In this document: positions 51,001 through 63,000 of the stretch, one piece after another
Numbering within the stretch: the stretch's first letter is position 1
Layout: each line of letters begins with the position of its first letter
Position numbers: made by a program
DNA from: a virus
Taxonomy: Duplodnaviria; Heunggongvirae; Uroviricota; Caudoviricetes
DNA length: 64,000 nucleotides
Virus record (IMG/VR): IMGVR_UViG_2939521961_000006
Reading direction: 5' to 3' (one strand)

Positions 51001-54000
51001 GCGGGCCGACGCCGCCGCCCGGTACAGAAAAAGAGATCATCAGATCATCAATACGCCAGTCCGGTAGTTCACGGAACGGTCGCATCAGCGCGGCGGTCGG
51101 CTCATGCCAGTGGTTCACTGCCTGTACCAGTAATGACCAGTTGGTTTCACCGAGATGATCGTAGCTTTCGAACGGGCCGTGGCTGACCTGCCATTTGCCA
51201 TCCTGGTGACTGACCAGTCGACTGTCAACTTCGCTTTCCATCGCCAGACCCGCCAACTCGTCTGGAGAGATCGGGTCAATAAAATTATTAAAGCCGCGTT
51301 TTAACACCACCGGGCGTTTCTGCCAGTGACGTTCAAGAAAATCGGGCCAGTTAAGAGTGAGTTGGTATTCCATGTTAAGCATCCACAGGCTGGTATCTGC
51401 AACCGATTATAACGGATGCTTAACGTAATGCGTGAAGTATGGACATATTTTATCAATTAGTGTTTTTTGCCGTTTCATAATGTTTCAGATTGTTCATTAT
51501 GTTTTTGATTATAAACAGATTTGTGATTTTCCTTGTTCCAGCTTGTTTCACGTTGTAGCCCTTTGTGCAACGATCGGTGTAGTTAATGGTGTAGTTAATT
51601 GTGATGACCGGAATCAAAATTATGAGCAGAGCACTTAACAAACTGAGCGATACACAGCTGAGGAAAATCAACGGCACACCCGCCCAAAAAACAGCCTTTC
51701 TTAATGACGGTGGAAACCTGAGCGTCAGGCATTCAACCAGTGGCCTTTTAACCTGGTATTTCACTTACAGGGCCGGAACGGGAAGGGGGGCACCACCGGA
51801 ACGCATTAAGCTGGGAAATTATCCTGATCTGAGCCTGAAATCAGCCAGGGAAAAAGCCGCCCAGTGTCGCGCATGGCTGGCAGAGGGGAAAAATCCACGT
51901 CATGAGCTTAATTACACCGTACAGGAAGCGTTAAAGCCGGTAACGGTTGGCGATGCGCTCACCTACTGGCTTGAGTCGTACGCAAAGGAAAACCGCGTGG
52001 ATTATGCCGCCCTGAAAAAGCGCCTTAATAATCACGTAATACAGCACATTGGTGCTATGCCGCTGGATAAATGCGAGCTACGGCACTGGCTGGCCTGTTT
52101 TGACCAGGTGGCAAAGCGAACGCCTGTTACTGCCGGATTCTTGCTACAGACGTGCAAACAGGCGCTTAAGTTCTGCCGGAGGCGGCGCTATGCAATCAGC
52201 AACGTTCTTGATGATATGAGTGTGGCGGACGTTGGGAAAAAACCGGATATAAGCGAGCGTGTCTTAAGCACCAAAGAACTGGGCGAATTATTGCAGGCAC
52301 TGGACAAAAAAATATTCTCCCCCTACTACATCGCGTTAATCCGCCTCCTGATTGTGTTCGGATGCCGGACGGTAGAACTGAGGTTATCGGAGATCAGCGA
52401 GTGGGATTTTACCGAAATGCTCTGGACCGTGCCGAAAGAACACAGCAAAACGAAGGTGGCAATATTCCGGCCCATACCGGAAGCAATACTGCCGTTCGTC
52501 ACGCAGCTGGTGGAGCAGAACAGGCACACGGGCTTATTGCTGGGGGAAGTGAAACAGGAAACAAGCGTGTCGCAGTACGGCAGATTAGCGCACAGGAGGC
52601 TAAATCACCCTCACTGGTCACTACATGACATCCGGCGCACCTTTACAACGATGCTGAGCGATTTAGGCGTGGATCCTCACGTCGTGGAGCAGCTTACAGG
52701 CCACCAGATGCCAGGAATGCAGCGAGTTTATAATCATTCCCGTTATCTGGATGCTAAACGCAATGCGCTGGATATGTGGATGGAGCGGTTAGGGATACTG
52801 GCGGGAACACATGAAAACGTAACCGCACTACCAGCAGCCAGAAGAAAATAATTTTTTTCGTGTTTTTTCAGTATGCGCATACTGGATAAGCACACAGATA
52901 CAACGGCGAACAATGTGAAACAACGTGGAACAACCACGAACAAGAGGCGAAAAAGTACACAGGTTTATAAGTGACTGATTTTATTTGTGTGACTGTTTTT
53001 TTATACATTAGCGAATAACGCTTTAACGCGTGAGAAAAAAGGCATGAAACAATATTTTATGCCTTTGTATTAACATGAATTTAAAAGATTTTATTCTTAC
53101 TGTTTCATTTTCTGTAAATCATACATCCTCAATATTTGCCATTCATCACTCTAGCGGGAACAATACGACACAATAAGACACCTGATGACTCTTTAAGAAA
53201 CGAAAGGGGGGCAATAGTGTTAAGCACTGATCGGTTTATACGTGAAAAAGAATGCGAAAAACTAACCGGCCTTAGCCGTACGTGTCGCTACCGCCTGGAA
53301 AAGGCCGGACAATTCCCATCACGTCGTAAACTTGGCGGTCGTTCCGTTGGCTGGTCTTTATCCGAGGTTCTGGCCTGGAAGGATAGCTGCAAGGCAGTTC
53401 ATTAATCACGCTGGCGGCACGCAGCCGCCACACATCAATCATCTGAACACAGAGCTATAACCATGAAGATTGAATATACGCCAGAACGTGGGCGGGGATT
53501 CGTTCGCCCTGGTGAAACTGAAAAACAACAAAATTGGGGTTTTTCAGACATAAAAAAAGCGGCCCCGAAATGGAGCCGCCTTTCTGAACAGATAACCCGC
53601 TGCGCCGTTTGTGTGTGTGATCCCAAACATAAGAACGGCAATGATAGTCGCTATCAGGCTGGTGGGCAATGCTATCAGTCTGGTTCAGTTCGTTGCCATA
53701 CCTGCAATGAGCGCTTTTCCCTGTACTCTTTAAGGAATTGCTCAAGGGCAAAAGCACATGGCGCGAATCTTTCTGATTCATGCTCTATCTTTCTGCGCCG
53801 TCTTTTCCGTGCCGGTGATAATGTTTTGGTCAATTCTTTATCGGTCATTGTGTTGTCCTGCATAGCAATGCGCCGTAATACCTTACACCACGGCGCTGAT
53901 GGTGATTACTCTGGTTCTTTGGCCTTGCGCCGCTGGCGATATTCAACTTCTCGTTTTAATGCTGCAGTAACAAATTGCCCCGTACTTTCGCCAGGCATTT

Positions 54001-60000: not shown

Positions 60001-63000
60001 TGGCGGAAAATGGCGAGTTTAAGCCGTGGGATGGTCAGGAATCTGGCAAGGCTGTTTATCTGACCTCGTACCCCGTGGACACGTCGACGCAGAAATCAGC
60101 ACAGTGCTACAAGACGGGGATATTCAATATTGCCGCCGTTAACTGGCCTGAGAGCGCCGACACCGACGCGAAAAAATGCGCCGCCTTTGCGGGTTCTGGC
60201 GTATCCGTTCAGCCGCTGGCGCGATAAGCAGGGGGAACGATGGCAACGAATGAAAGTATCATGACGCTACCGCTGGCGAGTAAATTTAAAGCCGAAGCGC
60301 GGGCAATGGCTGACAGAGGTTTATCAACCTACGAGGCCGTATATCAACTTAACAGCCTGGAAGAGAAGGACAAGCCGCGCGCTGATGCGATTATGGCGCT
60401 TCATGAATCTGACGACTATCAGCCGCTGTTACGTGCAATGGCAAACGTGCCTTGTATTGATGTTGATACGGCTAAAAACATCCTGAACATGACCATAGAG
60501 CAGGAACGCCCGAAGGTTGCACCAGAGCTTACCGCAGCCTTTGAAAACTTTATGGACATGCACAGCCCACAAGCCGTATCAGCTGGCATGGCATACGATG
60601 GCAGAAACCCGGGCGATGACGGCGACATCGATCGCATACTGAAAACCATCTGAGACAAGGCCGGAGAAATCCGGCTTTTTTGCGGGTCCTTTCCGGCATA
60701 TGGACCTGTTACGGGGCGGAGACCTCGCGGATTTTCGCTATTTATGAGCCTTTTCAGGGGGGGGGTGGTGGTTTTGTTGTTTGATCTATCTTTATGAATG
60801 AAAAGGGAAAGATGCAAGCAATACACCAACCTGAAGCAGTAATTAAGTTGGTGTATTAATGAAATCTCATCTGATGAACAAAAAAAACATGGCGAAAAGC
60901 TGCCGTGTAAGTGCGACAGCGTTCGACAAGTGGGGAGTAACTCCCGTTGAGCGTAAAGGCCGTGAGGCGTTTTATGATGTTGCCAGCGTGATAGAAAATA
61001 GGGTTAACAATGCAATTAGCCAGCTTATAAACGACAAAGGCGAGATTGACGATGATGAACTTTTACGAGTCAGGATCAGATTACTGACAGCACAGGCAGA
61101 GGCGCAGGAACTTAAAAACGATCGCGATCGCGGTGACGTGATTGATACTGAGTTTTGCCTGTACGCGCTTTCAAAGCTGGCGAGTCAGATTTCATCAATC
61201 ATGGACATCCTCCCGCTTACTATGCAAAGGAGCTTCCCACAGATTACCCCCGCCATGCTGGACAGGCTTAAAAGGGAAGTGGTTAAAGCCTGTAATGCCA
61301 GTGCCAGAGTTGCCGACAACCTCCCACAGATACTGGCTGATTACTTGAAAGAAACAACCGGAAACGTACCGGAAAAGTTGCTACAGAAGAAAGGCGAGTA
61401 ACAGACGCGCAATTATTGAACAAAAATGAGAAAGGATCTGATAATGGCATTTTCTGGCTAAAATGCCTCGTGTCAGATCCTTTCTTTTTTTAATATTTTC
61501 ATTGTTAAACAGTCTGTTACAGAGAAGAAGATCGGATCTGACTTTTGCCGGAAAATTCTCATAAACAGATAAAAACCGCGAGGTCGCCGCCCCGTAACGG
61601 GCCATAATTCCAGGAAGGACCCGACGACACCAGACTATCAGAGCGATGGGGGCACAATGACAGAAGCCGAACTACTGGGATTAATCCGCCGCGTCGCCGG
61701 AATCAGCCAGCAGCATGACGAACAGGCCACACAGCCGGACAGCGTGACCGCTGAAAATTATGTGCGTGTTGTAGCGGAAGTGATGCGCCGTGATGGTATA
61801 GAACTTAATGGCGTTGATATGCGCAACATACGGAACCGCGTTCTTGAAATGCTGGCCTACAATCGCCGCGTTGAACTGTATCGGGAGAAAGAAAAAATAA
61901 CGTACCACTGGAAGAAGCCGGAACGGCTGCGGCGGTAACTTGCTGATATTCCCGATAACGCAAAATTGCGCTGGCTACATCCCTCACATCTGAGGACTGT
62001 TAACCAGAAGGCCGGAATATATTCACAAACTACGAAATTTTCGTAGTTTAATTAATGGTCAGATTAATCGCTAACCCGCTGATATTTTCGGAAACCTCAA
62101 TTTGAGGAAGTCGGAAGCGTCACCCTTCATATTCTGAATGGTCATAATGACCACGCAGACCATCAAGGCAACCACAACGAACATCGTTACGGTTGGAGCT
62201 TTTACCCCACTGGGGGAAAGGTATTACGATAATCATAACACCTACCGAACAGGTAAAACCCACCAGCCTGATTAACAGTTAACCGGAAAAAAAATCCGGT
62301 AGCCCCGTTATGGGGATCCCCATATCGACATTAACGCCCCTCATGAATTGGTGCGCTTCCCCCTGGAAAGATTACCCGCCTGTATATTTCTTGTGTCTAT
62401 TTGTTCCACGTTGTTTCATACAGTGCACCGAACGGTGTAGTTAATGGTGTAGTCAATTTGCTGTTTTTAGCACTTTTTGCAGTGTGTGTTGTTTAATTAA
62501 ATCAATGGGTTGCCTTGCTGTGGTGATAAAAGGACATATTTATTCATCTTTCGGCGCAGAATGCTGGCGACCAAAAATCACCTCCATCCGCGCACCGCCC
62601 AGCATGCTCTCTCCGGCGACGATTTTACCCTCATATTGCTCGGTGATTTCGCGGGCTACCGCCAGCCCTACACCTTGCCCAGGGCGTAAAGTATCAACCC
62701 GTTGACCACGGTCGAAAATGACCTCTCGCTTGCTTAATGGAATACCGGGGCCATCATCCTCGACCACAATATAGAGATGCTCGTCGGTTTGCCTTGCAGA
62801 AATTTCGACAAACTCGAGGCAATATTTACAGGCATTATCCAGCACGTTGCCCATCACCTCGACAAAATCGTTCTGCTCACCGACAAAGCTGATCTCTGGC
62901 GAAATATCGAGAGAGATATTGACCCCTTTGCGTTGATACACTTTGTTCAGCGCTGAGGTGAGATTGTCCAGCAGTGGGGCGACCGGATGCAGCTCGCGGC

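Follow-up and report, generated by a model that had tools for sequence, protein, structure and literature searches.

Which kind of mobile element lies between the roxA and phoQ genes in IMG/VR virus record IMGVR_UViG_2939521961_000006 (Caudoviricetes), and does its unusual gene content require a satellite class of its own? The stretch of DNA analysed here, called the window, is 64,000 nucleotides long, and the island in question occupies its positions 51451-62541. Initially, a first-pass annotation made from the sequence alone proposed that this island, with its lambda-type capsid, decoration and small terminase genes, does not fit classical satellites and may supply the capsid shell while a lambda-like helper phage provides the rest. 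The analysis described here points to a different answer: with a probability of about 93%, the island is a phage-inducible chromosomal island (PICI) of the EcCICFT073 family, inserted at the ycfD(roxA)-phoQ site published for that family. The PICI family, its attachment (att) site, the capsid and decoration homologues, the two cos sites and the copy of the element in E. coli O26:H11 strain 11368 are all already in the literature.

The extent of the element was established by comparing its two flanks with the unoccupied roxA-phoQ intergenic region in E. coli K-12, where a single GGGCATATTT is present. K-12 homology ends at 51450 and restarts at 62532, and because it breaks there the ends of the insertion are the 10-bp GGACATATTT repeats, giving an element of 11,091 bp. 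The same core was published for EcCICFT073, an 11.4-kb island at ycfD-phoQ, ycfD being roxA (Fillol-Salom et al., 2018, PMC6092414). The 26-bp direct repeats that had been taken for the boundaries do exist; they differ by one mismatch, form the best-kept part of a 75-nt imperfect repeat, and lie within the element, where most likely they are integrase arm-type sites. When distances are measured on the reconstructed attP, their doubled TGTAGTTAA motif is found 78-101 bp upstream and 131-154 bp downstream of the core centre. In PICIs embedded in helper prophages a doubled motif of other sequence was described 81±2 bp upstream and 132±2 bp downstream and was proposed to represent the integrase arm sites (PMC10111431); that published doubled TGTATTGC motif was located at both ends of the PICI embedded in STEC316. 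The TGTAGTTAA motif keeps the same distances from the attP core as the TGTATTGC motif, which was reported as unique to helper-embedded PICIs, and it is also present in the CFT073 locus fetched for comparison (L002, 1887-1907 and 13106-13126). Fillol-Salom et al. (2018) list the 26-bp sequence in their Table S1 as "att site core" of EcCIDI14 (PMC6092414), and the yejM-site "cores" of the same table are doubled motifs of the same style, so some published att cores may be arm sites.

What does an island need in order to be regarded as a PICI? The SatelliteFinder paper defines the PICI core as an integrase, a regulator, a primase-replicase, a capsid morphogenesis component and a small terminase, and reports that 97% of complete PICIs (Type A, all components) come from E. 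coli, while in a separate survey 21 of the 29 Gram-negative PICIs used as reference had a major capsid gene. The open reading frames (ORFs) between 51.4 and 62.6 kb agree with the earlier description, and they include an integrase gene at one end, where direct repeats mark a specific att site, and beside int a Phage_AlpA protein as the AlpA/MerR/Stl-type regulator. The island has its own replicase module (an AAA_25/RepA helicase) with a putative origin (ori) of iterons 3' of the gene, a capsid-morphogenesis component made of E-like and D-like genes, and a small terminase gene for packaging redirection (Phage_Nu1, phrog_57). Tail, holin, terL, portal and head-tail adaptor genes are absent, as judged by tblastn with lambda proteins and by family scans of the annotated ORFs, and the 11,091 bp compare with about 10-15 kb for PICIs. 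Placement in the EcCICFT073 family follows from the ycfD-phoQ integration, the GGACATATTT core and the high identity of the backbone. The element listed for O26:H11 11368 at 1619447-1630554 (11.1 kb; Table S2, PMC6092414) is the same one; its Int, RepA, capsid, decoration and TerS have the RefSeq protein accessions annotated in the 100%-identical match to the window, and no difference was detected. The claim that the gene set misfits classical PICIs was mistaken, because the gene set and its order recur in EcCICFT073 at this very att site, capsid and terS genes are core PICI components, and 21 of the 29 reference islands carry a capsid gene. No evidence contradicts the PICI classification.

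The capsid-related genes on the one hand, and the combination of integrase, AlpA and cos on the other, might also recall a capsid-forming PICI (cf-PICI) or a P4-like satellite, respectively. Both had been set aside in the first pass, rightly so: the island has none of the terL, portal, protease and head-tail adaptor or connector genes that define cf-PICIs, and psu, delta, sid, ash and alpha, which define P4-like satellites, are families that matched none of the scanned proteins. Membership in either group is hardly conceivable.

Could the island then be a degraded lambdoid prophage which retained E, D and Nu1 by chance? The homologues of lambda-family head and terminase proteins and the lambda-type cos would be expected of such a remnant, and the homology itself held up in profile searches (Phage_cap_E 2.2e-50, HDPD 1e-17 and Phage_Nu1 7.9e-23, with concordant PHROG matches). 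However, the same unit of about 11 kb, in the same order, is intact at roxA-phoQ, at yejM/tRNA-Pro and inside a prophage portal gene, and at least 80% of the island is found in 363 of 5426 complete E. coli genomes. Its genes are under purifying selection, it has a satellite-type replicon and integrase of its own, and the order E, D, cos, terS, noticed from the start as not that of lambda, is real and kept in the relatives. The tblastn search with lambda A, W, B, C, FI and FII gave no match in the island, in which all intergenic gaps are shorter than 600 bp, and pseudogene traces of these six genes are missing as well. This bears out the earlier statement that terL, portal, protease and tail genes are lacking and that the island depends on a lambda-type helper for these functions while carrying its own determinant of packaging specificity. 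Decay of a prophage is extremely improbable and as an explanation effectively refuted; the roxA-phoQ island is a phage satellite.

EcCICFT073 is the model Gram-negative cos PICI (PMC6092414, PMC6739421), and comparison with the CFT073 locus shows how closely the two agree. At 11.4 kb versus 11.1 kb, they share integration site, core and gene order, and identity reaches 98% for SSB (single-stranded DNA-binding protein), 97% for Int and the 68-aa protein, 96% for the capsid, 95% for the decoration protein, 94% for AlpA, the DUF4222 protein and the 137-aa protein, 88% for the 93-aa protein and 83% for PerC, with the Icd-like protein within 88-98%. DNA identity breaks at two places, the replication gene and the packaging cassette. 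At the first, a 466-aa RepA-type helicase in the island stands against a 584-aa primase in EcCICFT073. The swapped modules (55473-56873 versus 6242-7996 of the CFT073 locus) share the N-terminal 125 aa of their products at 62%, which suggests a common N-terminal domain placed on different catalytic bodies. The putative ori is marked by AAAGTGAGG iterons, since the 190 bp following repA contain 6 of the 17 matches in the window at up to one mismatch and 4 of the 5 exact ones.

At the second place, the segment unlike CFT073 (60756-61547) lies exactly between two cosN sites. Two inverted cos sites flank terS in the island; the lambda-like cos seen upstream of terS in the first pass is there, as one of a pair. 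Two sites, cos1 and cos2, were published for EcCICFT073 too, and in both islands they are inverted, with cosQ and cosN conserved. The cosN of cos1, GGGCGGAGACCT, is one change from the lambda cohesive end, and an exact lambda match is found in cos2 and in the cos1 of the CFT073, Nissle and STEC316 elements. What differs is the contents of the cassette: a 180-aa Nu1-type TerS in the island versus the 144-aa RppA in EcCICFT073, together with both cosB regions. RppA heterodimerises with the helper TerS and redirects it to the cosB of cos1, and transfer of EcCICFT073 requires that helper TerS. Cos PICIs of the Rpp type encode next to cos1 an Rpp protein of about 144-153 aa without the TerL-binding C-terminus; in the island a full-length Nu1 homologue is found there. 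It aligns end to end with Nu1 at 36% identity and over its full length also with N15 gp1, and the alignment includes the C-terminal region which in lambda binds the large terminase subunit (TerL) and which Rpp proteins do not have. No similarity to RppA was detectable (BLASTP E 3.2), and a sequence search of the PDB gave neither RppC nor Nu1 at E <1, a result that excludes close Rpp kinship and is silent on fold.

The DNA-binding domain of this TerS is closest to that of N15 gp1 (30 of 59 residues identical, versus 19 of 57 to lambda). In STEC316 a prophage whose head and packaging genes are of lambda type harbours a terS-type PICI within its portal gene, and since the TerS of that prophage, the presumed helper, is indistinguishable from Nu1 in the alignment, the TerS of the embedded PICI has a DNA-binding domain unlike that of its host prophage. 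The C-terminus of the satellite TerS was considered as a mimic of the STEC316 helper TerS and was found no closer there than elsewhere (29/66 versus 19/38 in the central region). Together with the cos1 cosB, terS is inherited in PICIs at three att sites, namely those of roxA-phoQ, Nissle 1917 (where the element adjoins yejM and tRNA-Pro) and STEC316. The cos2 site is unlinked to terS: its cosB is a different one in the Nissle element, and the STEC316 element lacks the site.

In the island cos2 has, unlike in EcCICFT073, a phage-type cosB with three R elements. Its alignment with lambda cosB scores 63, compared with 19±3 in shuffled sequences, none of 300 reaching that value. The three R elements follow the lambda arrangement, all read CAGATCCKWTCT where lambda has CGTTTCC, and are the only three matches in the window. 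A cosB of the same type, at about 80% identity, occupies the normal place in a lambdoid prophage of avian pathogenic E. coli (APEC) E12049 (L012, 4880-5150), where it directly precedes the terS, terL, head-tail joining, portal and S49 protease genes which that prophage has itself. Because of the three R elements and of this homologous cos before the terminase genes of the APEC prophage, cos2 is regarded as a complete phage-type cos. About 270 genomes match the cos2 cosB, whose R elements read CAGATCC in contrast to CGTTTCC of lambda, at 60-90% identity, and judging by sequence the cos2-type cosB looks like a distinct packaging-specificity group.

How common is this arrangement? By megablast at a coverage of at least 80%, 595 of the 5426 complete genomes, among them O157:H7, O145 and Nissle 1917, contain the terS cassette and 53 the rppA cassette, numbers that compare two alleles and not TerS-type with Rpp-type islands overall, as diverged RppB and RppC would be missed by megablast. 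EcCICFT073 may not be representative of the majority cassette allele, the terS cassette being roughly ten times commoner. The terS allele is common in Shiga toxin-producing lineages (O26, O157, O145) and in Nissle 1917, and its mode of packaging would decide which helpers can mobilise the island.

The second question raised by the locus concerns the E-like and D-like genes. The profile match of the 351-aa capsid protein covers positions 14-328 of the 329 in Phage_cap_E, direct comparison with lambda gpE gives 44% identity, and no phage capsid at least 60% identical was found in the phage collection. Next to the decoration gene lies a gene that had been overlooked, encoding a 137-aa protein, presumably the homologue of c1501, being the next gene after c1500. 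Lambda Nu3 residues 117-200 match phrog_1999, the 137-aa protein's own PHROG family, at 2.7e-26; the protein itself matches the C-terminus of the protease-scaffold family phrog_53 at 6.7e-9, and direct hhalign comparison with Nu3 was weak (E 0.012). In a word-indexed protein search all matches were close relatives from E. coli, with identities of at least 64%, and an exhaustive representative search returned only 8 proteins. The PHROG cross-matches and the hhalign signal together suggest that the gene is related to lambda Nu3 and scaffold-like. The ratio of nonsynonymous to synonymous substitution rates (dN/dS) is 0.06-0.07 for the capsid (0.06 versus CFT073), 0.17-0.18 for the decoration gene and 0.21-0.41 for the Nu3-like gene, with a span of 0.06 to 0.24 also given for capsid and decoration genes together, so purifying selection acts on the three genes, which form a conserved unit. 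Terminator-like hairpins of nearly the same sequence (GCCGGAGnAATCCGGC and then a run of T) are found at three places, 58018-58047, 58382-58411 and 60655-60684, after perC, the 74-aa gene and the Nu3-like gene, respectively; they bracket the 68-aa, E, D and Nu3-like genes as a separate unit, and the third abuts the cosQ of cos1.

Do these genes build an essential shell? It could be argued that the island represents a new satellite class which makes its own shell of E and D and determines packaging specificity, and takes portal, protease, TerL and tails from a lambda-like helper. The homologues are intact and full length, with the Nu3-related protein adjoining, the selection on them is strong, they form a distinct lineage with no phage capsid above 60% identity in the collection, and the bracketing hairpins suggest separate regulation. 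Yet, E. coli PICIs of this architecture have already been published, and in EcCICFT073, whose capsid is 96% identical, deletion of c1499 (capsid) or c1500 (decoration) left transfer by the resident helper and interference with lambda unchanged. The same island with a tetA cassette in c1501 retained transfer, and since the DNA in its particles is phage-sized, small capsids are ruled out for it. Four units of 11.09 kb would make 44.4 kb, or 91% of the lambda genome, and three units 69%, a length too short for the packaging limits of lambda. A class with an obligatory shell of its own is unlikely, and the idea that the island has to supply the shell is not supported. Because of purifying selection in the face of knockouts without effect, the genes of the capsid unit are considered functional, though dispensable in the conditions of those tests; most likely they contribute to head assembly facultatively or as a backup. 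That capsid genes in PICIs are kept by strong purifying selection (dN/dS about 0.06) and yet show no deletion phenotype in the model island is a recognised puzzle. What remains of the initial description is the observation itself and the homology calls; the boundary, the single cos and the new type of satellite do not stand.

With the PICI classification in place, some points nevertheless weigh against parts of this explanation. The Stx1a prophage which shares the window is without a lambda cosN, its head and terminase module being of HK97 type, and for this reason, although only 5 kb away, it is no obvious helper. No resident helper was identified when this prophage was checked and O26:H11 11368 was searched for a cos2-type cosB, and no prophage with such a cosB was found in that genome. 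In the literature searched there was no experiment on a terS-type E. coli PICI; binding of TerS to cos1, direct recruitment of TerL and the use of cos2 as a phage-type site are read from sequence, and the published knockouts of the capsid genes, made in the sibling EcCICFT073, gave no phenotype. An element resembling N15 R3 in the cosB of cos1 (TTGTTGTTTGATC) was rejected as evidence, since 30 of 1000 shuffles reach its score, and serves as a lead only.

Helper-dependent induction, packaging and high-frequency transfer were demonstrated experimentally for EcCICFT073, and by family resemblance the island would be induced by a lambda-type helper phage. Int and AlpA would excise it at the GGACATATTT core, with the doubled TGTAGTTAA motifs as probable arm sites, and the RepA-type helicase would replicate it from the iteron ori directly 3' of repA. 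The large terminase of the helper would cut the concatemer at the lambda-type cosN, and packaging would proceed into particles built by the helper, with specificity provided by the cassette between the two inverted cos sites. Island TerS might bind cos1 and recruit the helper TerL directly, in the manner of TerS from Staphylococcus aureus pathogenicity islands (SaPIs), and cos2 with its complete phage-type cosB might be used unmodified by a matching helper terminase. A fuller version, in which the full-length TerS binds the cos1 cosB and recruits the helper TerL so that the helper TerS is dispensable, cos2 is a second packaging entry, and the E, D and Nu3-like unit is a facultative shell kit for certain helpers, e.g., those with a defective or interrupted capsid gene, is offered tentatively, as possible and on balance doubtful.

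The features of the island are collected in the table below. The earlier account of a satellite backbone holds for Int, AlpA, the replication protein and SSB; the supposed ribbon-helix-helix (RHH) repressor gave no Pfam match and no match to an RHH family, and it belongs to the YlcI/YnfO family instead. Between alpA and this gene, PGAP marks a truncated pseudogene (53463-53910), and a 342-aa ORF from a mechanical list (53463-54491) runs antisense through the YlcI/YnfO gene and is probably no gene. PerC is listed among the accessory genes of EcCICFT073, and in a Shiga toxin-producing O26 background positive for the locus of enterocyte effacement (LEE) a PerC-family activator could influence virulence regulation. 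PADLOC, run on ten ORFs that are unassigned or accessory, matched no defence system, and Rfam found no RNA family in the island.

Table. Features of the roxA-phoQ island, in window coordinates.
Feature	Position	Strand	Evidence and remarks
attL core GGACATATTT, left insertion junction	51441..51450	+	K-12 empty-site comparison; equals published EcCICFT073 att core
Doubled motif CGG-TGTAGTTAA-TGG-TGTAGTTAA-TT	51575..51600	+	+131 to +154 from attP core centre; probable integrase arm-type site
Tyrosine integrase, 409 aa	51622..52851	+	Arm-DNA-bind_3 6e-18, Phage_integrase 2e-16; 97% to EcCICFT073 Int
AlpA-family regulator/excisionase	53217..53405	+	Phage_AlpA 1.5e-16; 94% to CFT073 homologue
YlcI/YnfO-family small protein, divergent from replication operon	53906..54085	-	NCBIfam NF041551 2.1e-16
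Icd-like protein, two hypotheticals (154 aa, 77 aa), DUF4222 protein	54285..55476	+	PGAP annotation of identical sequence; DUF4222 1.6e-24
Replication initiator, RepA-family helicase, 466 aa	55473..56873	+	AAA_25 2.4e-43; phrog_2850 1e-265
Putative ori, six AAAGTGAGG iterons directly 3' of repA	56873..57062	.	Iteron count; position agrees with PICI ori placement
Hypothetical protein, 83 aa	first gene of 57074..58366 block	+	
SSB	57322..57732	+	Pfam SSB 1.7e-16; 98% to EcCICFT073
PerC-family activator	57743..58015	+	Pfam PerC 3.9e-43
Hypothetical protein, 74 aa	58142..58366	+	
Conserved 68-aa protein, first gene of capsid unit	58618..58824	+	phrog_3255; 97% to CFT073 homologue
Lambda gpE-like major capsid protein, 351 aa, c1499 homologue	58824..59879	+	Phage_cap_E 2.2e-50; phrog_29 1e-106
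Lambda gpD-like decoration protein, 111 aa, c1500 homologue	59892..60227	+	HDPD 1e-17; phrog_49 6e-27; 38% to gpD
137-aa protein, probably related to C-terminal part of lambda scaffold Nu3	60240..60653	+	phrog_1999 4e-63; phrog_53 C-terminus 6.7e-9
cos1	60684..60858	+	cosQ 60684-60696; cosN 60714-60725 (GGGCGGAGACCT); then non-lambda cosB up to terS
Nu1-type small terminase, full length, 180 aa, at EcCICFT073 rppA position	60859..61401	+	Phage_Nu1 7.9e-23; phrog_57 2.4e-51
cos2	61429..61622	-	cosQ 61610-61622; cosN 61581-61592 (as lambda); cosB R3 61529-61540, R2 61474-61485, R1 61429-61440
Conserved 93-aa protein	61657..61938	+	phrog_1561; 88% to CFT073 homologue
Doubled motif, second copy	62433..62458	+	-78 to -101 from attP core centre
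attR core GGACATATTT, right junction, overlaps phoQ stop codon	62532..62541	+	K-12 empty-site comparison

Upstream of the island, positions 1-46400 of the window are occupied by the Stx1a-converting lambdoid prophage, with a cI/cII/O/P/Q region, stx1AB, lysis genes, an HNH-terS-terL segment, a fused protease-capsid gene, tail genes and the type III secretion system effectors NleG and EspW. Copies of IS600 are found at 6118-7382 and 9627-10890, and are absent there in strain 02E060, which has a single IS600 elsewhere in the prophage; collinearity of the window with 02E060 upstream of the island was rejected on account of these differently placed copies.

Among other known systems, the pac-type SaPIs (SaPI1, SaPIbov1) provide the nearest precedent for the proposed role of TerS, since there, as would be the case here, a satellite TerS pairs with the helper TerL and redirects packaging to the satellite site. 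The two TerS proteins come from unrelated lineages, however, and the SaPIs use headful (pac) packaging with a separate Ppi that blocks the phage TerS, whereas the island is of cos type and no Ppi equivalent was identified in it. Ccm of SaPIbov5 is likewise a satellite-encoded homologue of the helper major capsid protein; Ccm redirects capsid size, an activity not supported for the island. The cf-PICI EcCIEDL933 resembles the island in having capsid genes and an Int/AlpA/replication left arm, but in cf-PICIs terL, portal, protease and adaptor genes complete the head and packaging set and nothing except tails is stolen, while the island is without those genes. E. coli PapRG-04-4 (L013, 1-10155) has a related PICI module with RepA, SSB, capsid, decoration and terS genes and, at 83% identity, a cosB of the cos2 type. 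Baseplate and tail-fibre genes of P2 type lie no more than about 1 kb away, and the module may be another satellite, embedded in a prophage of a different kind or bordering on it. The helper-embedded PICIs of the 11capE family (PMC10111431) integrate in late genes of the helper and carry the TGTATTGC motif, whereas the island is chromosomal and carries TGTAGTTAA. Otherwise they have the same layout, including capsid and decoration genes and doubled arm-type motifs at the same distances from the attP core, and the terS of the one in STEC316 is 84% identical to that of the island at the DNA level.

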